This document shows positions 1,756 through 58,457 of a DNA stretch of 64,000 nucleotides, one piece after another. The stretch covers positions 82,077 to 146,076 of the forward strand of contig JAEWUV010000007.1 of assembly GCA_023396915.1 (NCBI GenBank), read 5' to 3'. Origin of the DNA: Candidatus Parcubacteria bacterium (GTDB lineage: Bacteria; Patescibacteriota; Microgenomatia; UBA12405). A program made the position numbers and the translations under genes. The notes under the pieces were generated by a model. It had not been told where the DNA came from, made no database searches, and saw only the letters and a list, made by a program, of their open reading frames with translations. How positions within the stretch are numbered: the first letter of the stretch is position 1; each line of letters begins with the position of its first letter.

Positions 1756-2790
1756 ATGCCAAAAGCAGTTAAAAAAGTTTTTATCTTCGTCATCGCCATT
1801 TTTATTCTATCTTTCGGTGTGTTTCACTTTGGTGTCAAATTATTAGCTCAAAAAATAAATAAATCACCGGAATATATTACTGACTTTATCAAAAAAACAA
1901 ATCAAGAAAATCCTTATTTCAATCAAGACAAACTTAATTTTATTTTTCTTGGCCTTGACGAGCGAGATGATGCTTTAGAAAAAACCCAAACTACCGATAC
2001 CGTCATCTTTGCTTCACTAAACCTTAAAGATAATAAAATTACCCTTATCTCTATTCCCCGTGACTTATGGGATTACAATACTAACTCTAAAATTAACGAT
2101 ATTTATCCTCAAAGTTTAGAGCAAGAAGACAAGTTTACTTATATCAAAGAAAAATTTAACCAACTTACCGGGCAAAATATTGACCATATTGTTGTTTTAA
2201 ATACCGAAAACCTTATTAAGTTCATAAATCTAACTGGAGGATTAGATGTTTATTTAGAAACTGGTTTTATCGACAAACAATATCCCAATCCTGATTATAT
2301 TGCCGACCCCAAATCTGGAGCTCCAAAGTATATTACCGTTGAGTTTAATAGTGGCGATATTCACCTTGATGAAACTAATATCACCCAATTTGTGCGTTCT
2401 CGTAAAGGTGGCGACACTATCGCCCAAGGGGGCACGGACCTAGCCAGAATCCAACGTCAACAATTAGTCATAGATGCTTTATTACAAAAAATAAAAGACG
2501 GTAAAATTGTCTCTTCTATTAATCAAATTTTTGATTTATATAAATTTTGGGATGAAGATGTTTCCACCGATATTACCGATTTAAAAGCTTTTCAAATCGG
2601 ATCAATTATCCTAAAAAATATCGCTAATCAAAAGGAATTTAATTTAGAAAAAAAAGAAATTACAGTAGGGGAATCCGCCAAAGATGGTTTAATTTACCAT
2701 CCGACCACTTTTATCAACAAACAATGGGTTTATATTCCCGCCGACAAAGACTACACCTCTTTTAAACAATTCTTCTCCGACTCAATCTGA
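1756..2790 (+). CDS. LytR-CpsA-Psr (LCP) family cell-wall glycopolymer phosphotransferase
   Basis: N-terminal TM helix, then the LCP core motifs (FLGLDERDD...TDTVIFASL...LISIPRDLW). 344 aa. Confidence 0.8.
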   Translation: MPKAVKKVFIFVIAIFILSFGVFHFGVKLLAQKINKSPEYITDFIKKTNQENPYFNQDKLNFIFLGLDERDDALEKTQTTDTVIFASLNLKDNKITLISIPRDLWDYNTNSKINDIYPQSLEQEDKFTYIKEKFNQLTGQNIDHIVVLNTENLIKFINLTGGLDVYLETGFIDKQYPNPDYIADPKSGAPKYITVEFNSGDIHLDETNITQFVRSRKGGDTIAQGGTDLARIQRQQLVIDALLQKIKDGKIVSSINQIFDLYKFWDEDVSTDITDLKAFQIGSIILKNIANQKEFNLEKKEITVGESAKDGLIYHPTTFINKQWVYIPADKDYTSFKQFFSDSI

Positions 2791-2964
2791 TTTTGTTATA
2801 ATTCTTTAGTTTTTCAAAAAAGATTAAATTAGCTTAATCTGACTTTTGAAGTACCTTAAAATTTTGTTGGTTTTAAATTCTAGTGAATGACTTTTTGAAC
2901 ATTAATTTAATATTTAGTAAGCCATTCATTAGAGAGATCTTGAATGAGTAGAAAGGGGATCATT

Positions 2965-3516
2965 ATGGAAATTTCATTATCAACACTTGTCGTTGTCGCA
3001 ATTGGAGGACTTCTAATCTCTGTCGCATTATTCTTCATTTTAAGGATGAAGGATAAACTATCCAAATTCGCAACCTATATGAAACGCCCGACTTTAACCC
3101 TGTTGTTTATCGTATGGTTAGGGATCTTAATTGACAGTCACTTAGATCTTTTTTTTCTCCCCTGCACCTTATTTGGGTCAATAGCGCTTCTTTCGATGGC
3201 TTGTTTTATTGGGTTACTTCCAATGTGGATAGTTGTCGTTATCTTGTACTTTATCAAAACTGATAATTCTACAAATAATGACAATCATGAAACAACGCCA
3301 AAAAAGTTAGACAAGAAGACCAAAAAAAATATGGTGTTGTTCGGAACAATTGCGATTACCTCTTATATCAGCGGGGTGATAATTCAGTCATTGGAACACT
3401 ATCCTGTCGAAACTGGGAAAAGAAACATCTTTGCCGTTATCCTTTTGGCAGTAAGTGTTATCATCTGTCTTACAGCTATCTATAAGGGTAAAAGCAAAAA
3501 GAAAACTAACAAATAA
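2965..3516 (+). CDS. Hypothetical integral membrane protein (about 5 TM)
   Basis: The ORF track begins at 2944, but an AAAGGGGA RBS-like sequence lies 6 nt before ATG 2965. Multiple hydrophobic helices. Slightly GC-richer than neighbouring genes. No known domain recognised. Confidence 0.5.
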   Translation: MEISLSTLVVVAIGGLLISVALFFILRMKDKLSKFATYMKRPTLTLLFIVWLGILIDSHLDLFFLPCTLFGSIALLSMACFIGLLPMWIVVVILYFIKTDNSTNNDNHETTPKKLDKKTKKNMVLFGTIAITSYISGVIIQSLEHYPVETGKRNIFAVILLAVSVIICLTAIYKGKSKKKTNK

Positions 3517-3546
3517 AGACCGATGTCAGCCTTTGCTGACAAATTA

Positions 3547-3637
3547 AGCCCCGGGCAAAAGTGAGAAATGAATGAAAATGTATGGCTGCAGCACGTACAA
3601 CACATTTTTTGACGTTTTTCACTCCGGGGCTTTTTTC
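3547..3637 (+). other. GC-rich stem (AGCCCCGG...CCGGGGCT) closing a loop of about 69 nt, followed by a U-run: complex terminator or small structured RNA
   Basis: 8-bp GC stem (3547-3554 with 3624-3631), then TTTTTTC. A separate perfect hairpin GTCAGC-cttt-GCTGAC lies at 3525-3540, right after the stop of the upstream gene. Confidence 0.35.
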
Positions 3638-3692
3638 TTTAACTTTACTCACCACTTTTGCTATACTGAATTATTAGATTTTAATTTTAAAA

Positions 3693-4175
3693 ATGGATAT
3701 ACCAAATCTTTCAAATAACCAACCTGTTAATAAAACATTTAATCCTCTAAAAGTTCCTGATTTTCCTAAATTTATTTATCCAATTATTATCGTCGTCGCA
3801 ATAGCTGTCGGCTTTGCCGCCTCTCGATTTTTTCCGTCTGAATCAGATAGTGTTTCACAGGAAGATAGTTTAGTGGCTAATCAAGCCGCTCAAATAGTTG
3901 AAGGTGAAGAAATCAAAGTTGGCGTTGTTTATGGCAATACTAGTCAAACTTTTTCCGACCACGCCACCGGTGTAGTTAAAAAAGGCGGAGTCAATGGTGA
4001 AGGCACTCACACATTAGACCGTGAAGGCGGAGTTGATCAAGATGCCGCTTTAACTTCATCAGTAATTGATTTAGATCTCTTTGTCGACAAAGAAGTCGAA
4101 GTTAAAGGTGAGACCAATGCATCACGTAAAGCCGGCTGGTTTATGGATGTCGGCAGTATCAAAATTCTTGAATAA
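3693..4175 (+). CDS. Hypothetical membrane-anchored protein upstream of ftsE
   Basis: 160 aa with one TM helix (IIIVVAIAVGFAA), followed by an acidic Gly/Val-rich domain. A TTAACT-17-TATACT promoter-like sequence lies at 3639-3667. It directly precedes ftsE with a 2-nt gap. Confidence 0.45.
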   Translation: MDIPNLSNNQPVNKTFNPLKVPDFPKFIYPIIIVVAIAVGFAASRFFPSESDSVSQEDSLVANQAAQIVEGEEIKVGVVYGNTSQTFSDHATGVVKKGGVNGEGTHTLDREGGVDQDAALTSSVIDLDLFVDKEVEVKGETNASRKAGWFMDVGSIKILE

Positions 4176-4177
4176 AA

Positions 4178-4894
4178 ATGAAAATAGTTTTTGATAAAGT
4201 TGATAAAAATTACGGGCTCATTAGTGCCCTAAAAGATATTACTTTTACCATTAATCCTGGTGAATTTGTTTTTATCATCGGACCTTCCGGGGCCGGCAAG
4301 TCAACTCTACTTAAACTTATTTTAAATCAAATCAAGCCGAGCCAAGGGATTCTAACCATAGATGATATTGATTTAAATTTTGGTAAAAAAAATGAAATTG
4401 ATAAAATTCGCCAAAAAATCGGCGTTATTTTCCAAGACTACCAACTTATTATGGACAAATCTGTCGAAGAAAATATTGCTCTTAGTTTAGACATTAACAA
4501 CTACCCCAAAGATAAAATTGCCGGTAAAATCGACGAAGTCATTAAAGAGGTAAATTTAAACAGCCGTCGCTATCTTTTCCCCTCACAACTGTCTGGGGGA
4601 GAACTACAACGAGCCGCCCTTGCCCGAGCCTTAGCTATCGAACCGGAAGTAATTTTGGCCGATGAACCTACCGGTAATCTAGACATGGAAAATTCTTGGA
4701 ATCTCGTCAAGCTCTTAAAAGATATTAATCAAAAAAACGGTACTACTGTCATAATGACCACTCACAATCAAGAGATTATCAATTCACTTGACAAGCGTAA
4801 AATTGAAATTGACAAAGGTGTTTTAGTCTCCGATTCGAATAAGCCTAAAAAAACCAAAAAAGTTAAAATTTCAAAAAAAGATGAACTCAATTAA
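4178..4894 (+). CDS. ftsE: Cell-division ABC transporter ATP-binding protein FtsE
   Basis: Walker [13 protein letters not shown] signature LSGGELQR, Walker [12 protein letters not shown]. It is followed by ftsX with an overlapping junction. Confidence 0.85.
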
Positions 4895-5753
4895 AACTGC
4901 CTGGCACCATATTCGCCGTTCTCCTATTCAAAGTTTTACTGCTCTTCTTTTAATGACTTTCAGTTTTATTTTAATTTCCTTTTTTATTATTATTAGTAAG
5001 GGGACAGTTGAAACTTTAACCTATTTTGAAACTAAACCGGAAATTACCATTTATCTCAAAGATGGTTTGGAAAATACTATAATTGAAAATTTAAAAACTG
5101 AACTGGCCAATTATCAAAATGTCAAAGAAGTTAGATTTATTTCCAAAGAAAAAGCTTTAGAGCTTTACCGACAACAGAACCAAGATAATGCCGCCTTAAC
5201 CGAGATGGTGACCGCCAGTATTCTTCCGGCCTCTATTGAAGTTACCGTTTCCGACCCTTCAGCCTTGGAAAAAATTTATCAAAATTATGCTACCAGAAGC
5301 GATATCGTTGATGAAATTATTTATCAAAAAGACGTCATTAATACCCTTCTTGATTGGACCAATACTATTCGCAAAGGCGGAATTGTCATTATTTCAATTG
5401 TCCTTTTGGTCACTTTTTTTGCTGTTTCTTCTATTATCGGCATGAAAACTACTAACCGCAAAGATGAGATAAAAATCAGCCGTCTTTTAGGTGCTTCTAA
5501 CTGGTACGTCAAAAAACCGTTTTTATTGGAAGGTATTTTTTATGGTTTTTGGGGTAGTTTCGTCGCCTCAATCGTAGTTTTTAGTTTTTTTATTATCAAG
5601 CGTCAGCTTATAAATTCTTTCTTTTCTCCGATTGAATTTGTCCCTTCAGATTTTAGTTTATATGCCATTTTATTAATGGCAGAAATAACTTTGGGTTGTT
5701 TTGTCGGTTTTCTCGCCAGCCTTATTGGAGTCAAAAGATATATTAAGTTTTAA
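4881..5753 (+). CDS. ftsX: Cell-division permease-like protein FtsX
   Basis: 290 aa. One N-terminal TM, a large extracytoplasmic loop, then three C-terminal TM helices. Sits in the conserved ftsE-ftsX position. Confidence 0.8.
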   Translation: MNSIKTAWHHIRRSPIQSFTALLLMTFSFILISFFIIISKGTVETLTYFETKPEITIYLKDGLENTIIENLKTELANYQNVKEVRFISKEKALELYRQQNQDNAALTEMVTASILPASIEVTVSDPSALEKIYQNYATRSDIVDEIIYQKDVINTLLDWTNTIRKGGIVIISIVLLVTFFAVSSIIGMKTTNRKDEIKISRLLGASNWYVKKPFLLEGIFYGFWGSFVASIVVFSFFIIKRQLINSFFSPIEFVPSDFSLYAILLMAEITLGCFVGFLASLIGVKRYIKF

Positions 5754-5755
5754 TA

Positions 5756-6901
5756 ATGTTTTTAAAATTTAAATTTTTTTTTCTAGTTTTACTGACTTTA
5801 TTTTTAACCACTTCTAATTTTTTATATGCCAACGAAGAATCTGATTTAATAGCCAAATTGGCAGAATTGCGCAATCAGAAAAATACCCTAAACACTCAAA
5901 TACAATATCTTGATTCTCAGTATCAGTTAACTCTTTTAAAGATTAACCAAACTGAAACTTCCATTTCAAATTTAGAAAAAGAAATTGCCAGTCTTAATGT
6001 AGAAATAGGTAAGTTAGAAAAAGAAATCGATCAACTATCAGCCACTTATATTAGTCAAATTATCCAAAGTTATAAATTGCAAAAAAAATATCCCTCTTTT
6101 GCTTACCTTTTATTAGATAATCTAAACACCTTTCTCGAACAACACCAATATTCTTCAGCTATTCAGGCTAATAGTAAACAAAATTTAATTGACAGGGAAA
6201 CCGTTCGTTATAACTACGACACTCAAAAAACAGCTAAAGAGAAAAAACAAACCGAGTTAGAAACATTACAAAAAACTCTAGCTTCTCAAAAAATTAGTTT
6301 AGCTAATCAAAAATTTGCCAAAGATCAGTTACTTAAAACCACTGAGGCTGAATATAATCAAGTTCAACAACAACTTGCGGCTTTAAAAAGCTTTGCTAGC
6401 TCAGTTGGAGGAAATACTTGTTTAGATTCATCACCAGGAGGTGGTAGTGATGGCAATTTTTATTCTCAAAGAGATCCCCAATGGTGTAAAAAATATATTG
6501 GTATCTCTAATGATACTATCGGTTCTGTCGGGTGTTTTATAAGTAGTGTTTCTATGGTCTACAAAAAACTAGGTCATGATATAACTCCGTTATCTTACGC
6601 CTCTAATCCAAGTAATTTTTGGGGAAATACTGCTTATATGGTAGCTCCGTCACCCCCGTCTGGCTATACATACAAACAAGTTTCTTATAGTGCTAATACC
6701 GTAGACAATGAGTTAAAAGCTGGACGTTATGTCATAGCCCAAGTAAAAATGGCTAATATTTCTGGTATGCATTTTATTGTCATTATTAGTGGAAGCGGTG
6801 GTAATTATAAAATTCATGACCCTTGGTTCGGGGCTGATCAGAATTTTTCAGATCGTTATTCTACTGGCCTTATTATGAGTCTCCGTTTAATTACTAAGTA
6901 A
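5756..6901 (+). CDS. Secreted coiled-coil protein with C-terminal C39-like (YvpB/PF13529-type) cysteine peptidase domain; probable FtsEX-controlled cell-wall hydrolase (PcsB/EnvC analogue)
   Basis: Signal peptide, then about 200 aa of heptad-like coiled coil (LEKEIASLNVEIGKLEKEIDQL). C-terminal motif QRDPQW...TIGSVGCFISSVSMV with a downstream His (KIHDPW). Immediately follows ftsEX with a 2-nt gap. Confidence 0.65.
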   Translation: MFLKFKFFFLVLLTLFLTTSNFLYANEESDLIAKLAELRNQKNTLNTQIQYLDSQYQLTLLKINQTETSISNLEKEIASLNVEIGKLEKEIDQLSATYISQIIQSYKLQKKYPSFAYLLLDNLNTFLEQHQYSSAIQANSKQNLIDRETVRYNYDTQKTAKEKKQTELETLQKTLASQKISLANQKFAKDQLLKTTEAEYNQVQQQLAALKSFASSVGGNTCLDSSPGGGSDGNFYSQRDPQWCKKYIGISNDTIGSVGCFISSVSMVYKKLGHDITPLSYASNPSNFWGNTAYMVAPSPPSGYTYKQVSYSANTVDNELKAGRYVIAQVKMANISGMHFIVIISGSGGNYKIHDPWFGADQNFSDRYSTGLIMSLRLITK

Positions 6902-53510: not shown

Positions 53511-54488
53511 TCACATTACCATTTCCTTAAAAAACTTCCCCAGCTTATCTTCACTGTGTCTTAATCTCATATTCTTCGCCTCTATAGTAGCAATGTCTGC
53601 TACCACAGTTTTAATAGACTTATCCTTAATCATCTTAACTAACTTAGCATGTTCTAATTTATAGAAGTCCAACACCTTTTTAAATATTTTTTTGTCTAAT
53701 TTCAATACATCAGCCATCAGCACTAAATCAAAAGGAGAATTACACTTTAAATATTTTTTAAAAATCTCTAGATAACCCCGCTGAGTTGCGTCCTTAACTT
53801 CATTTGCTGTTGCCAATATATTAGTCATTAATATTTTTTTGGCTTTACTTTGGTTATACGCCTCTACCATTCCTGTTGGTAAAAAATTAGGCAAAACCGA
53901 GCCATAAGTAGTCCCTGGGCATATAATTATCACTTCTGCATTCTTCAAAGCATTAACCGCCTCTTTATTAGCCCTTACCTGAGGATTCAACCAAATTTCC
54001 ACAATTCTATCATCAGACATCCGCAAATCATCAATAAAATTTTCCCCTTTATATTCCTTACCTGAAACAGTCTTTAGACAGATATTTGATAAACCCAAAG
54101 ACACCGGAATCACTTCACCTTCCAGCTTAGCTCCTGTTAATTTAGAAAACAAAGCGTCAACCATTCCCAAATCACCCTCTTTTTCCGACAAAAATTGAAA
54201 AAAAGTATTTCCAAAATTTCTTCCTCTACCGTCACGATATCTTAATATTTCATCCCAAAGTTCTTTCTGTTTCCCATCATTCCACAAAGAAATTAATGAT
54301 CTCCAATAATCCGAAAAAGCCAAAACCCCACCTCTTTCATCAGTCCGAATTCGTCCACTATCACCGCCACTATCAAAAGTAGTCACTACCGAGCTTATAT
54401 TTCTAAAACCAGCTCTAATCAAAGCCTGATTAACCACCGGCATAGCCGTGCCACCACCGACAGTACAGATTCGTGTTTTCAAATCCAT
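53511..54488 (-). CDS. YvcK/UPF0052 (CofD-like) family protein
   Basis: The N-terminal ICTVGGGTAMPVV glycine-rich loop and the overall 325-aa size match the YvcK / gluconeogenesis-factor family. Confidence 0.7.
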   Translation of the reverse strand: MDLKTRICTVGGGTAMPVVNQALIRAGFRNISSVVTTFDSGGDSGRIRTDERGGVLAFSDYWRSLISLWNDGKQKELWDEILRYRDGRGRNFGNTFFQFLSEKEGDLGMVDALFSKLTGAKLEGEVIPVSLGLSNICLKTVSGKEYKGENFIDDLRMSDDRIVEIWLNPQVRANKEAVNALKNAEVIIICPGTTYGSVLPNFLPTGMVEAYNQSKAKKILMTNILATANEVKDATQRGYLEIFKKYLKCNSPFDLVLMADVLKLDKKIFKKVLDFYKLEHAKLVKMIKDKSIKTVVADIATIEAKNMRLRHSEDKLGKFFKEMVM

Positions 54489-54493
54489 AATAG

Positions 54494-55471
54494 TTATTTT
54501 ATCAAATTAACCACTAATTTTATCAAATCATCTTTTTCTCTCGGGTTACTGGTAGCAATCAACAAAGCCAAAGCCACCAAAGCTCTGTCACTAATTTTAT
54601 TTTCTCCTATATTATTTTTTAGTATTCTGTTTTGATTTAAATAATAAACAAACAAAGTTGAACCGATTCGCTTATTACCATCAACAAAAGGGTGATCTTT
54701 AATCACCATATAAAGTAAATTAGCTGCCTGTTCTTCCACACTACTATACAAATATTTACCATCAAAAGTCTGATTAATGGCGCCAATTATTCCATTTAAA
54801 TTATTAACTCCATTTTCCTGACCAAAATTAACAGACAACTTTTTACCAAAATTTAGTTTTATCCCATTAATAAAACTAATTACTTCATCATAAGTCAAAA
54901 CATATCTGACTTTTTTAGTTAAACCATCAAGTTTTAATTTATGGTCATCATATTGAGTCAATAAATAAATCGAGTTGGTATAATCTGAAATTAAACTAAG
55001 TAAAGAATCAGTTTCCGACCTTAACTGACTAATTTTTGATTTTGAAGTTACAAAATCAACTGTCTTCTTAAAATCTTCAAAAATCTTCCTTTGTTCTAAA
55101 ATTCTTTTTTTGTTTACAGCATAACCTTTGACTAAATAATTTCGTAATACCTTGGTCGCCCATATACGAAATTGAGTACCCTGTATGGATTTCACCCTAT
55201 ATCCGACAGAAATTATTACATCAAGATTATAAAAATTAGTTAAATAAGTCTTTCCATCATCGGCAGTTATCCGGAATTTCCGGATAACTGAGTTCTCAAA
55301 TAATTCACCCTCAATAAAGATATTTTGTATATGTTCGTTAATAGTTCTAATGTCTTTATCAAACAAATCAGCCATTTGTTTTTGTGTTAACCACACAGTT
55401 TGACCATCAAAACTAACTTTTAAATCAATATTCCCTTTAGAAGACTTGTATAAAACAATCTTGTTATTCAT
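54494..55471 (-). CDS. RhuM-family N-terminal domain fused to a Doc/Fic-type toxin domain
   Basis: N-terminus IVLYKSSKGNIDLKVSFDGQTVWLTQKQMADLF...FYNLDVIISVGYRVKS is typical of RhuM-family proteins. The C-terminus carries HPFVDGNKRIGS, which matches the Doc-type Fic motif HxFx(D/N)GNKR. Confidence 0.7.
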   Translation of the reverse strand: MNNKIVLYKSSKGNIDLKVSFDGQTVWLTQKQMADLFDKDIRTINEHIQNIFIEGELFENSVIRKFRITADDGKTYLTNFYNLDVIISVGYRVKSIQGTQFRIWATKVLRNYLVKGYAVNKKRILEQRKIFEDFKKTVDFVTSKSKISQLRSETDSLLSLISDYTNSIYLLTQYDDHKLKLDGLTKKVRYVLTYDEVISFINGIKLNFGKKLSVNFGQENGVNNLNGIIGAINQTFDGKYLYSSVEEQAANLLYMVIKDHPFVDGNKRIGSTLFVYYLNQNRILKNNIGENKISDRALVALALLIATSNPREKDDLIKLVVNLIK

Positions 55472-55489
55472 AAATTAATTTTACTCCTC

Positions 55490-56305
55490 ATGCTAAACTA
55501 TTCTATGCTTTCTTTAATCAAAGAAACCAAGGCAATCTATAAGTGGCGTGAATTATTGTGGCAAATGGTTGCCCGCGAAGTTAAAGCCCGTTACAAACAA
55601 TCAATTTTAGGCTATTTTTGGGTTATTTTAAATCCGTTAGCTCAGATGTTAGTTATGAGTTTTGCCTTTTCTATAATTTTACGTATTCCCACTAACGCCG
55701 CCGGTAATATTCCTTATTCAATTTTCTTATTTGTTGCCCTTCTTCCTTGGACACTTTTTTCCAATTCATTATCATCTGCCACCGGATCGCTAGTCTCTTC
55801 CGGTAGTTTGATTACTAAAATATATTTCCCCCGAACCATACTGGTAATATCTACTATTTTTTCCAAGATCATCGACTTTATCTTTGCCAATTCCATTCTT
55901 ATTATTTACATGATTATTTATCATATTCCGATCAATTGGAACATACTCTGGGTTATCCCCATATTTATTATCCAGCAAATTTTTACCCTAGGTCTTTCTC
56001 TTTTCTTTTCTGCTGCCAATTTACTTTACCGTGATATTCAATATCTTTTAAACATGATTTTACTTTTATGGCTTTATGCCACCCCCATTATTTATTCTGC
56101 CGATGCCATTCCATCAAAATACAAAATCATTTTTCAACTAAATCCCATGGCAGTTATTACCAATGCCTATCGTCAGGTCGTTTTGGGTGGGGGAGCACCA
56201 AAATACTCCAGTCTTGCCATAGGTCTTCTTGTTTCTTTTATTGTCTTGTTTATAGGCTTTAAGTACTTCAAATCTCGCGAAAAAATCTTTGCTGATAATA
56301 TATAA
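55490..56305 (+). CDS. ABC-2 type polysaccharide/teichoic-acid exporter permease (Wzm/TagG-like)
   Basis: 271 aa with 6 TM. N-terminus ELLWQMVAREVKARYKQSILGYFWVILNPL is characteristic of ABC-2 Wzm/TagG permeases. Confidence 0.8.
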   Translation: MLNYSMLSLIKETKAIYKWRELLWQMVAREVKARYKQSILGYFWVILNPLAQMLVMSFAFSIILRIPTNAAGNIPYSIFLFVALLPWTLFSNSLSSATGSLVSSGSLITKIYFPRTILVISTIFSKIIDFIFANSILIIYMIIYHIPINWNILWVIPIFIIQQIFTLGLSLFFSAANLLYRDIQYLLNMILLLWLYATPIIYSADAIPSKYKIIFQLNPMAVITNAYRQVVLGGGAPKYSSLAIGLLVSFIVLFIGFKYFKSREKIFADNI

Positions 56306-56307
56306 CT

Positions 56308-56652
56308 ATGTCCATTCTAAAAATAGACCATAAACCAACAAAAAAGGAAATGATTATCCTTACCCAAGAATACCCACAATATATAAAACTGTCTGCAGAT
56401 TTAAAACAAGATATTTTATATGGTGGCAGTCGGCTTCATTATGAATGTGAACAAGAATTAATTCACAAAGAAAATTCCAAAAATGAAAATATTTGGAACG
56501 GTGGAATTAATTTAACCAATAAAAAAATAGAATATACCGCTGTGGCCAACATCAAACCATCCGCCGACAATCCGGGACTTGAAATTCTTAATCCCGATAA
56601 TCGGGAAAAGTTTAAAACAATTGTTAAAAAATATTTTCCAGAATATGACTAA
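56308..56652 (+). CDS. Hypothetical protein (114 aa)
   Basis: ORF with host-like AT-rich composition. No recognisable motif. Lies between the ABC permease and ATPase genes. Confidence 0.4.
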   Translation: MSILKIDHKPTKKEMIILTQEYPQYIKLSADLKQDILYGGSRLHYECEQELIHKENSKNENIWNGGINLTNKKIEYTAVANIKPSADNPGLEILNPDNREKFKTIVKKYFPEYD

Positions 56653-56917
56653 TAAAACATACCAAAATTATATGAATTTAATTAGTGATTCCTATCGTGG
56701 AATCTACGAACTCGTTGATCCAAAAATCGGCAATAACAGTTTTTTTGTCAAAAATTATCTAAAAAATATTACCTTAATTACCAATAAATTTCCAAAATAT
56801 AAAAAAACATTAAAAATAAAAGAAATTTCCTCACAAAAAACAGAACCAAAAATAAAAGCTGAATATCTCTTAGATAATAACCGAACCATTCTGGATTTTA
56901 TATCTAAAAACATATAA
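56645..56917 (+). CDS. Hypothetical protein (90 aa)
   Basis: Starts at an internal ATG overlapping the previous ORF by 8 nt; the ORF track gives 56579. No recognisable motif. Confidence 0.35.
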   Translation: MTNKTYQNYMNLISDSYRGIYELVDPKIGNNSFFVKNYLKNITLITNKFPKYKKTLKIKEISSQKTEPKIKAEYLLDNNRTILDFISKNI

Positions 56918-56927
56918 GACCAAAAAA

Positions 56928-57020
56928 AACACCCCCAGACCTAGAACCGAAACAAAAAACTACAGCAAAGCGCGCTGCGGCATCTTGTTTCGGTCCTTCA
57001 GCCTGTTTTTATGGGGTGTT
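56928..57020. terminator. Nested GC-rich palindrome between convergent stop codons (bidirectional terminator)
   Basis: Outer arms: AACACCCCC (56928-36) and GGGGTGTT (57013-20). Inner arms: ACCGAAACAA (56946-55) and TTGTTTCGGT (56985-94). Central CAGC-aaagcgc-GCTG hairpin. Flanked by A- and T-runs. Confidence 0.6.
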
Positions 57021-57456
57021 ATTTTTCTTTCGGTAGCGCAATGGGTATGCCATGGTCGGCAAGACTCGTTTTGAAGAAATGAGTCCTTCCTTCGTCATGT
57101 GATTGCCGATTGAAATCTTCTTTTTTTACTTTTTCGAAAGATACAACCTTCCAATCAGATTCCTCAGAAGAACCCACCTTATAAACAACGCGGACGTAAA
57201 CTTCCTCTTGGCACCCCTCCTCTTGGAAAGACCAAATAAATTTGGCTATGCCCTCTGCTTCGGCTTCAGGAGACGGGGGAGAAACTCTCCTTAAAATAGC
57301 TTCTCCCAAAGGAAAATCAGTTTTCCATCTCTGCATTTCTTTGATTTTCCTTTTCATCCAATCATAAAAAATGCGTGCCTGCTCTTCACTCGTTATTCCC
57401 GGAGTCCCTCTTCTTAAGTTTAGAAAAAAAATAACCTCCGTGACAACTGCGTTCAC
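57019..57456 (-). CDS. Hypothetical protein (145 aa), compositionally atypical (higher GC, fewer Lys/Asn/Ile)
   Basis: ORF with visibly higher GC than its surroundings. No recognisable motif. Possibly horizontally acquired. Confidence 0.45.
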   Translation of the reverse strand: MNAVVTEVIFFLNLRRGTPGITSEEQARIFYDWMKRKIKEMQRWKTDFPLGEAILRRVSPPSPEAEAEGIAKFIWSFQEEGCQEEVYVRVVYKVGSSEESDWKVVSFEKVKKEDFNRQSHDEGRTHFFKTSLADHGIPIALPKEK

Positions 57457-57728
57457 AAAATCAATCTCCTATTTTTAGTATTTCCATCTACACCATGCGC
57501 TTTATGGTGAACGGAAAACTAACTCCAAAATATTTAGAATCAATTTTCCATTCACCATTTTTTTAATGTGCCTTTCTTTAAAATACCAAAACTGCTTATA
57601 GCTTTTTCTTTTAAAGGAACGCCCTAATTCTACCAAAAAACCCCTTATTAGTCAATAATTATAGGATATATTTTAAACTAATTAATCAAGCTTTTCTTAA
57701 AAAATGTTAAACTTCTCTATATATTCTT

Positions 57729-58457
57729 ATGTCTAACCCAACAGTCATAAAATTCAACCACGTTACTAAACAATTTAGTAAATTAAGTCAAAAAACTTTC
57801 AAAGAGTTTTTACCAGCCCTTTTCCGTGGCGAAAAAACTATCGAAAGCTTCAAAGCCTTAGACAATATTTCTTTTGAAATCAAAAAAGGGGAGACTATCG
57901 GCATCATCGGCCCCAACGGTAGTGGTAAATCTACTATCCTAAAGCTCATTGCTGGCGTTATGTCACCCAACAGTGGTACTGTAACCGTTCATGGCAACGT
58001 TTCGCCCCTTATCGAACTAGGTGCCGGCTTTCACCCAGAGCTTACCGGCCGAGAAAACATTTATTTAAACGGCTCCATTTTGGGTCTCAAGCGCAAAGAA
58101 ATTACCAAAAATCTTCAATCAATTATTGATTTTGCCGAATTACAGGAATTTATAGATCAGCCGGTCAAACATTATTCTTCCGGCATGTACATGCGTCTTG
58201 CCTTTGCTGTCGCCGTCCACACCCATCCGGAGATCCTTATTGTTGACGAAATCCTAGCAGTAGGGGATACCGCCTTTCAAAAAAAATGCTTTGCCAAAAT
58301 GGAAGAGTTCCAAAAATCAAAAGAGGTCACCACCGTCTTCGTCTCACATGATATGACTAAAGTTAAATCTTTCTGCACTCGTTGCATCTATATAGACCAA
58401 CACAAAATCCAAGCCGACGGTCAACCAAAACCCACTATCCAAAAGTATCAGAAATAA
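57729..58457 (+). CDS. ABC exporter ATP-binding protein (Wzt/TagH-like, short form without C-terminal carbohydrate-binding module)
   Basis: Walker A GPNGSGKST, signature YSSGMYMRL, Walker B ILIVDE. The N-terminus (VIKFNHVTKQF...LDNISFEIKKGETIGIIG) is typical of TagH/Wzt. 242 aa. Confidence 0.85.
   Translation: MSNPTVIKFNHVTKQFSKLSQKTFKEFLPALFRGEKTIESFKALDNISFEIKKGETIGIIGPNGSGKSTILKLIAGVMSPNSGTVTVHGNVSPLIELGAGFHPELTGRENIYLNGSILGLKRKEITKNLQSIIDFAELQEFIDQPVKHYSSGMYMRLAFAVAVHTHPEILIVDEILAVGDTAFQKKCFAKMEEFQKSKEVTTVFVSHDMTKVKSFCTRCIYIDQHKIQADGQPKPTIQKYQK

Follow-up and report, generated by a model that had tools for sequence, protein, structure and literature searches.

The toxin Doc is a protein kinase whose substrate is EF-Tu, and the C-terminal helix of Phd inhibits it (PMC9207808). 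The fusion of RhuM to DOC was already pointed out in 2013 (Anantharaman et al.), and a protein of RhuM-Fic architecture, BifA of Streptococcus equi subsp. zooepidemicus, has effects that need the Fic catalytic histidine and has been reported to raise phosphorylation of its target (PMC6529018). A RhuM-domain gene of the PADLOC family PDC-S05 cut the plating of T7 and T5 about 1000-fold in E. coli B and protected that strain from T7, T5 and T4 (10.1101/2024.09.26.614923). BstA is reported to bring about abortive infection as a single gene product, one found at the places where phage DNA replicates (PMC8585504). Here we report on a gene that joins a RhuM-type N terminus to a Doc-type Fic domain (the RhuM-Doc gene), located at 54494-55471 on the minus strand of a 64,000-nucleotide (nt) stretch of DNA, the window, taken from positions 82,077 to 146,076 of contig JAEWUV010000007.1 of a Candidatus Parcubacteria bacterium. 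Its product is, with near certainty, a member of the RhuM/Fic/DOC family and is built of three modules, a Bro-N/KilA-N-like domain being followed by a helical linker and then by a conserved Doc-type catalytic domain under selection. The gene is accessory cargo between a YvcK/CofD-like gene and a wzm-like permease gene in a tiny groundwater bacterium of the candidate phyla radiation (CPR).

Comparison with these systems shows what the window protein shares with each. Like Doc of phage P1 and Salmonella, it is Doc-folded in its C-terminal 130 residues and carries the H-x-F-x-D-G-N-K-R loop; unlike P1 Doc, to which its identity is merely 17-19%, it has a 190-residue N-terminal extension fused ahead of this domain and is accompanied by no Phd gene. 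It resembles BifA in the order of N-terminal RhuM and C-terminal Fic, a likeness of described architecture, whereas BifA has been studied as a released virulence factor acting on human endothelial moesin (PMC6529018). With RhuM proper (PF13310, PDC-S05) it has the N-terminal domain and the first long helix in common, but the RhuM C-terminal region is swapped for the Doc domain. SoFic, a recognised defence protein that is reported to modify EF-Tu, is likewise a Fic-domain protein, but it AMPylates and is without a RhuM N-domain; BstA is without a Fic domain, and the likeness to both is one of functional analogy only. Members of the PADLOC family PDC-S23 (RhuM/Fic/DOC) have the same length and domain order, and both Pfam domains recur in homologs of 53-89% identity. 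From other PDC-S23 members the window protein shows no structural difference; it differs in its setting, the glycan-export cluster of a CPR bacterium as opposed to a plasmid or a restriction-modification operon. The PDC-S23 family as a whole is without a demonstrated mechanism.

In the list of open reading frames (ORFs) of the window, the gene is intact from ATG to stop and encodes 325 amino acids (aa). The PDC-S23 profile PDLC04965 matched residues 1-325 over profile positions 1-324 of 327 (E 1.2e-116), and two more PDC-S23 profiles matched at E 1e-105 to 1e-108. Pfam places PF13310 (Virulence_RhuM) at residues 61-136 (E 3.9e-24, 85.8 bits vs. a cutoff of 33.7), the match spanning model positions 1-79 only, of 252, and PF02661 (Fic) at residues 219-278 (E 7.7e-10, 39.9 bits vs. 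a cutoff of 24). With both Pfam matches above their gathering thresholds, and with the PADLOC, Doc fold and Doc profile matches, the first-pass annotation of a RhuM-type N terminus fused to a Doc-variant Fic domain is borne out. Its description of the N-terminal 200 aa as RhuM-like stands by the RhuM-type PDC-S05 profiles of PADLOC, which matched residues 1-205 at E 8e-65, but not by Pfam, whose match is confined to residues 61-136. The architecture is not unusual, for it defines a named family whose members number in the thousands: at least 8000 homologs were found in a collection of 5.8 billion proteins, both Pfam domains were present in 120 of 120 homologs among the matches listed, and NCBI (PGAP) names the homologs 'virulence protein RhuM/Fic/DOC family protein'. 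An identical protein (P0001) is already public, on contigs up to 907 kb, and the records of the window's relatives belong to Candidatus Shapirobacteria, within Patescibacteria. The gene is a typical, ordinary member of a named and catalogued family that is not yet mechanistically characterised; what goes beyond the first reading is the Bro-N-like fold, a mosaic segment and, in Shapirobacteria, the accessory slots that flank the permease gene.

The catalytic domain is of the Doc type by structure, profile and motif. Foldseek superimposed the C-terminal domain on the P1 Doc structures 3dd7_A, 3k33_A and 3kh2_C with Doc-normalised template modelling (TM) scores of 0.63-0.68, over the whole Doc length (121-125 aligned columns) and with a probability of 1.00; the match to 3dd7_A had a TM score of 0.68 and a root-mean-square deviation of 3.3 over 121 columns. 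A single-sequence search of PDB sequences gave no significant match and a family profile was required: the profile of 35 homologs matched PDB entry 9vzc, 'Death-on-curing family protein', at E 4.6e-5. PHROG 577, 'Doc-like toxin', matched at 1.3e-13. H260, F262, D264, G265, N266, K267 and R268 were invariant in 35 of 35 homologs (53-89% identity), K267 among them, in keeping with the earlier reading of HPFVDGNKR as the Doc variant of the Fic motif, and the catalytic loop is intact. Compared with the orthologs in two homologous loci (numbered here with an L; L057 and L007), nonsynonymous divergence (dN) in the Doc domain was 0.06-0.08 vs. a synonymous divergence (dS) of 1.0-1.6, and the domain is thus under strong purifying selection.

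The AlphaFold2 model of the full protein had a mean predicted local distance difference test score (pLDDT) of 72.6, good at residues 30-100 and 190-325 and poor in the linker, and residues 1-135 modelled alone gave a better result (pLDDT 82, predicted TM score 0.72). As modelled, residues 1-95 form three short strands, helices at 30-37 and 41-53, a beta-hairpin at 63-81 and a helix at 83-92. A Foldseek search of the N-terminal domain against BFVD, a set of predicted viral structures, returned 25 matches at E<=1e-3; those that carry names include BRO-family, Bro-N and 'Repressor domain' proteins, with antirepressor and KilA-N proteins coming next (E 1e-3 to 3e-3). These models show a predicted Bro-N/KilA-N-like fold for the N-domain, as in phage antirepressors and Bro proteins. 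BstA carries a KilA-N domain. The Pfam Bro-N, KilA-N and ORF6N models gave no match to residues 1-127, PF13310 being the only model matched even at an E limit of 10. Against the PDB, Foldseek returned winged-helix matches only, all of them weak (E>=0.09), and because of this we dropped the assignment to a specific winged-helix family.

Within the N-domain, a short segment departs from the rest of the protein in its relationships. Residues 38-82 are 36-51% identical to the corresponding segment of orthologs P0010, P0015, P0018, P0034 and P0052, the remainder of which is 79-95% identical to the window protein, and reach 76-82% identity in homologs whose overall identity is just 53-58%. At the DNA level, the segment is 44-58% identical to L007 and L057 vs. 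about 80% on either side. Since identity drops against orthologs and rises against distant homologs, with DNA flanks at about 80%, the pattern bears the signature of a cassette exchanged by recombination between relatives. Residues 38-82 probably lie in the recognition surface.

The linker, whose identity to distant homologs is merely 27-39%, may serve as a coiled coil or an autoinhibitory element. A search of residues 137-325 against 1.84 billion representative proteins returned 2366 proteins at E<=1e-3, of which 72 reached E<=1e-30, and helix 148-175 stays with the Doc core in many of these representatives (query positions 15-188 matched). Many matches are about 330 aa long and aligned over their C-terminal half. 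Among eight representatives sampled at other lengths (257-537 aa), six had a RhuM N-domain, some with an extra helix-turn-helix (HTH), one had an IS200-type transposase domain instead and one lacked a RhuM match, and proteins of about 180-200 aa exist that consist of the last linker helix and Doc only. In RhuM-Doc fusions the Pfam RhuM model is matched just to about position 110, from which it follows that the RhuM C-terminal region has been replaced by Doc. Proteins of 124-140 aa that are 55-60% identical to the Doc core were set aside, since they could be either solo Docs or gene calls cut short in metagenomic data. The features of the gene and its surroundings are collected in Table 1.

Table 1. 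Coordinates of the RhuM-Doc gene, the parts of its product and nearby features; positions are those of the window unless a locus is named.
Feature	Residues	Nucleotide positions	Strand	Basis or remark
Whole gene, RhuM/Fic/DOC family (PADLOC PDC-S23)		54494..55471	-	325 codons + stop; profile match
N-terminal RhuM-type domain, predicted Bro-N/KilA-N-like fold, putative sensor/nucleic-acid-binding module	1-95	55187..55471	-	AlphaFold2 model and Foldseek
Mosaic cassette (second helix and beta-hairpin), candidate specificity element	38-82	55226..55360	-	Identity comparisons
Linker, two long helices (96-144, 148-175) and loop	96-193	54893..55186	-	AlphaFold2, low confidence
Doc-type Fic domain, putative protein kinase effector	194-325	54497..54892	-	Foldseek, profile, PHROG
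Catalytic motif HPFVDGNKR, Lys at Doc-specific position	260-268	54668-54694	-	Read from sequence
GAGGAG, Shine-Dalgarno-like hexamer		55484..55489	-	12 nt upstream of RhuM-Doc ATG; sequence reading only
Variable islet between permease (55490-56305) and ABC ATPase (57729-58457, wzt-like)		56306..57728	.
60-61-aa ORF of orthologous loci		L003 8977-9159; L007 6981-7166; L047 2432-2617		L003 and L007 copies 60% identical

The gene is tightly enclosed by its neighbours. A CofD/YvcK-like gene (53511-54488, minus strand) begins 5 nt past the RhuM-Doc stop, and the wzm-like ABC-2 permease gene lies on the opposite strand, 18 nt away, so that both the adjacency to an exporter and the close downstream YvcK-like gene of the first-pass annotation are confirmed. 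That this closeness marks a functional pair did not hold: the spacing is not conserved in relatives and therefore gives no such indication, and coupling to the CofD/YvcK-like gene was rejected, other genes intervening in L005, L006, L007 and L012. The divergent start codons of the RhuM-Doc and permease genes are separated by 18 nt (55472-55489), and because they stand so close both promoters must sit within the opposite coding regions; the GAGGAG hexamer of the minus-strand gene abuts the ATG of the permease gene. A promoter and terminator scan of the region gave a site number not above that of shuffled sequence, and Rfam returned zero RNA families across the whole window. Base composition gave no signal of horizontal transfer, the gene being 28-33% GC and matching its surroundings.

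No adjacent, co-oriented Phd-like or other small antitoxin gene was found. Beyond the 5- and 18-nt gaps, all other ORFs of at least 20 aa in 54300-55700 are nested in or overlap the RhuM-Doc, CofD/YvcK-like or permease genes, which leaves no room for one and agrees with the earlier statement that no Phd-like gene adjoins. The window protein lacks the Fic inhibitory motif [ST]xxxE[GN] (classes I-III), as do most of the 35 homologs. A conserved ORF of 60-61 aa (MSTDNYI...) begins 2-3 nt past the RhuM-Doc stop in L003, L007 and L047. No copy of this protein occurs anywhere in the window, and the ORF is also missing in L005, L006 and L012. It matches no antitoxin or any other known family; absent from the window and without a family match, it was rejected as an antitoxin candidate.

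All orthologs of 62-100% identity lie beside the wzm-like ABC-2 permease gene of the same glycan cluster, in more than one position: between the CofD-like gene and the permease in the window and L005, and between the permease and the ATPase in L003, L006, L007, L012, L047 and L057, with a partial copy in L065. Fifty-four species-representative loci were fetched by the permease and the window proteins mapped onto them. The order TPR-CofD-permease-ATPase is conserved across these loci, and the RhuM-Doc gene is present in 4 of the 54. The permease-ATPase distance is below 60 bp in 20 of the 45 loci with both genes, and the others hold inserts of 0.1-4.8 kb. Slot cargo in other species comprises Acyltransferase-3 (12 loci), NYN (9), Avd-like 23S_rRNA_IVP (4), SoFic-like Fic (3), AbiEi/AbiEii pairs (2) and PDC-S13/Bro-N (2), with DUF3800, DUF4230, GNAT, DUF5674 and sugar epimerases also present. 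Since the slots hold differing genes and RhuM-Doc is rare among them, the gene is no part of the exporter but optional cargo, carried at a junction that varies. In L007, the stretch 2421-5900 holds a SoFic/PDC-S04-like Fic gene, DUF3800, a PDC-S13 Bro-N gene and NYN alongside RhuM-Doc, and is a small defence-like islet; its PDC-S13 Bro-N protein matches full-length at E 8e-110.

Homologs of 53-60% identity occupy quite different surroundings. L011 has methyltransferase, SIR2 and DUF87 genes on one side and a ResIII helicase gene on the other. L009 and L010 adjoin HSDR_N/N6_Mtase/Eco57I genes, with Methylase_S and NYN in addition in L009 and ParE, RadC and SLFN_AlbA_2 in L010. L013 adjoins an MmeI-type methyltransferase, a serine recombinase and a GIY-YIG gene, and L008 lies near TraG-like genes. 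Plasmid members from Legionella, Vibrio, Aeromonas and Shewanella align at 38-41% identity with 98-100% query coverage. Tn3-family transposase genes adjoin the full-length homologs of L014, on a Legionella pneumophila plasmid, where the homolog begins immediately past the transposase stop, and of L016, on an Aeromonas salmonicida plasmid, which suggests that these Tn3-adjacent homologs are carried as transposon passenger genes. The first-pass annotation had offered either a solitary toxin-like regulator or a defence-related gene embedded in the envelope locus; the latter fits best with the PDC-S23 match, the defence-type neighbourhoods and the slot cargo.

We lean, at slightly better than even confidence, towards a single-gene, self-restrained sensor-kinase that would arrest translation upon phage infection. 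Residues 1-95 would sense or target, binding phage DNA or a phage protein, and residues 96-193 would oligomerise the protein, hold the enzyme off, or both, the linker playing in cis the role that the Phd antitoxin helix plays on Doc in trans. By analogy with P1 and Salmonella Doc, residues 194-325 would use ATP to phosphorylate a conserved protein of the cell, EF-Tu being the likeliest, and translation would stop. The outcome would be an infection-triggered growth arrest of the abortive-infection type for which a separate antitoxin would not be needed. Kinase activity, target, trigger, autoinhibition and the defence role are what we infer. A fuller version, in which this self-contained sensor-kinase bears a swapped recognition cassette at residues 38-82, has its Doc domain held off in cis by the linker, and sits at permease junctions where, throughout the lineage, defence cargo of this sort lands in the very small Shapirobacteria genomes, is more speculative and, taken as a whole, doubtful.

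Several points weigh against the defensive sensor-kinase. No experiment has addressed this protein, or any PDC-S23 member, as a defence gene, a PDC-S05 relative being the only one tested against phage, and a literature search for 'PDC-S23' returned no paper. BifA, the only studied RhuM-Fic protein, was described as a virulence factor whose target is host moesin, and phosphorylation by BifA itself was not demonstrated (PMC6529018). The Doc model TIGR01550 (DOC_P1) scored 34.4 bits, under the NCBIfam cutoff of 38.65. The linker is modelled at low confidence (pLDDT 43-65), for which reason cis autoinhibition is speculation. At the locus itself, no recognised defence system was found: four neighbouring ORFs had no PADLOC match at E<=0.1, and the sole match, a marginal one to PtuB (E 6.8e-4), came from a 112-aa ORF. 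Finally, the clade loci of at least 62% identity all keep the gene by the permease, which may mean a link to the exporter.

Such a link would make the protein a regulator or accessory of the glycan-export cluster, with the N-domain controlling the permease gene or the kinase modifying an export or cell-wall protein, e.g., the YvcK-like protein. The constant adjacency to the permease speaks for it, as does the arrangement in the window, where the gene is divergent from the permease and 5 nt upstream of the CofD/YvcK-like gene. We nevertheless consider it very unlikely: the gene is absent from 50 of the 54 species-representative loci with the same synteny, its side of the permease and its relative orientation vary among loci, homologs of 60% identity or less occupy unrelated defence or mobile contexts, and AbiE, SoFic-like and NYN genes occupy the same slots. 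Alternatively, the gene may encode the toxin of a Phd/Doc-like addiction pair, its antitoxin lying elsewhere or in a small unrecognised gene, that would stabilise its DNA segment. The effector is of the Doc type, two plasmid copies adjoin Tn3-family transposases, a small gene overlaps the plasmid homolog in Vibrio (an HTH gene) and in Aeromonas (an upstream gene), and the 60-61-aa ORF follows the stop in three orthologous loci. That ORF, however, matches no antitoxin family and is lacking in the window, where gaps of 5 and 18 nt flank the gene, and in three further loci, and the gene persists without it under purifying selection, which makes an addiction pair unlikely.

A defence protein of the same architecture could also act by other chemistry or on another target, through AMPylation or a different modification, on a protein other than EF-Tu, or as a non-catalytic binding module. 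Fic enzymes perform several different modifications (PMC6529018), the defence Fic protein SoFic is reported to AMPylate EF-Tu (10.64898/2026.07.09.737422), and the equivalog-level Doc model falls below its cutoff. Lys267, which separates Doc from AMPylating Fic proteins, is invariant, and the best structural matches after size normalisation, like the best profile matches, are to Doc and not to AMPylases; we regard this variant as quite improbable. Least probable of all, and hardly credible on the evidence, is an effector aimed at another cell in the manner of BifA, here at the bacterial host of a presumably episymbiotic CPR bacterium. The Candidatus Shapirobacteria/Patescibacteria group, to which the contig titles point, presumably lives on other cells. 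BifA shares the architecture of RhuM at the N terminus and Fic at the C terminus and needs its Fic histidine (PMC6529018). Neither a secretion signal nor a gene of a secretion system was seen adjoining the RhuM-Doc gene, however, and the ABC-2 transporter beside it belongs to the glycan-export type; the family is widespread in free-living bacteria, on plasmids and in restriction-modification loci, and the N-domain belongs with the intracellular DNA-binding domains of Bro-N/KilA-N type.

For the field, little changes, since the architecture had been noted in 2013 and is named and catalogued. Of modest value is the finding of what we take to be a Doc-type kinase kept under purifying selection without an antitoxin in a minimal CPR genome, and the gene offers a clean test case of how a fused Doc stays silent and by what it is activated. 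In the mosaic segment there is a concrete candidate specificity determinant, and the permease-flanking slots are a mappable hot spot of accessory genes in Candidatus Shapirobacteria.

The variable islet of the window, 1.4 kb long, holds a DUF5674 gene, an ORF of 90-112 aa and, on the minus strand, an ORF of 145 aa (57019-57456). The last has a GTG start, and the public assembly annotates it as a gene; it had no Pfam, PHROG or PADLOC match, and its stretch has a GC content of 0.37-0.39 vs. about 0.30 nearby. Many contigs that carry the Shapirobacteria-type block (L017, L018, L021, L022 and others) are titled 'uncultured Gammaproteobacteria' or 'Pseudomonadales', and are probably mislabelled metagenome-assembled genomes.

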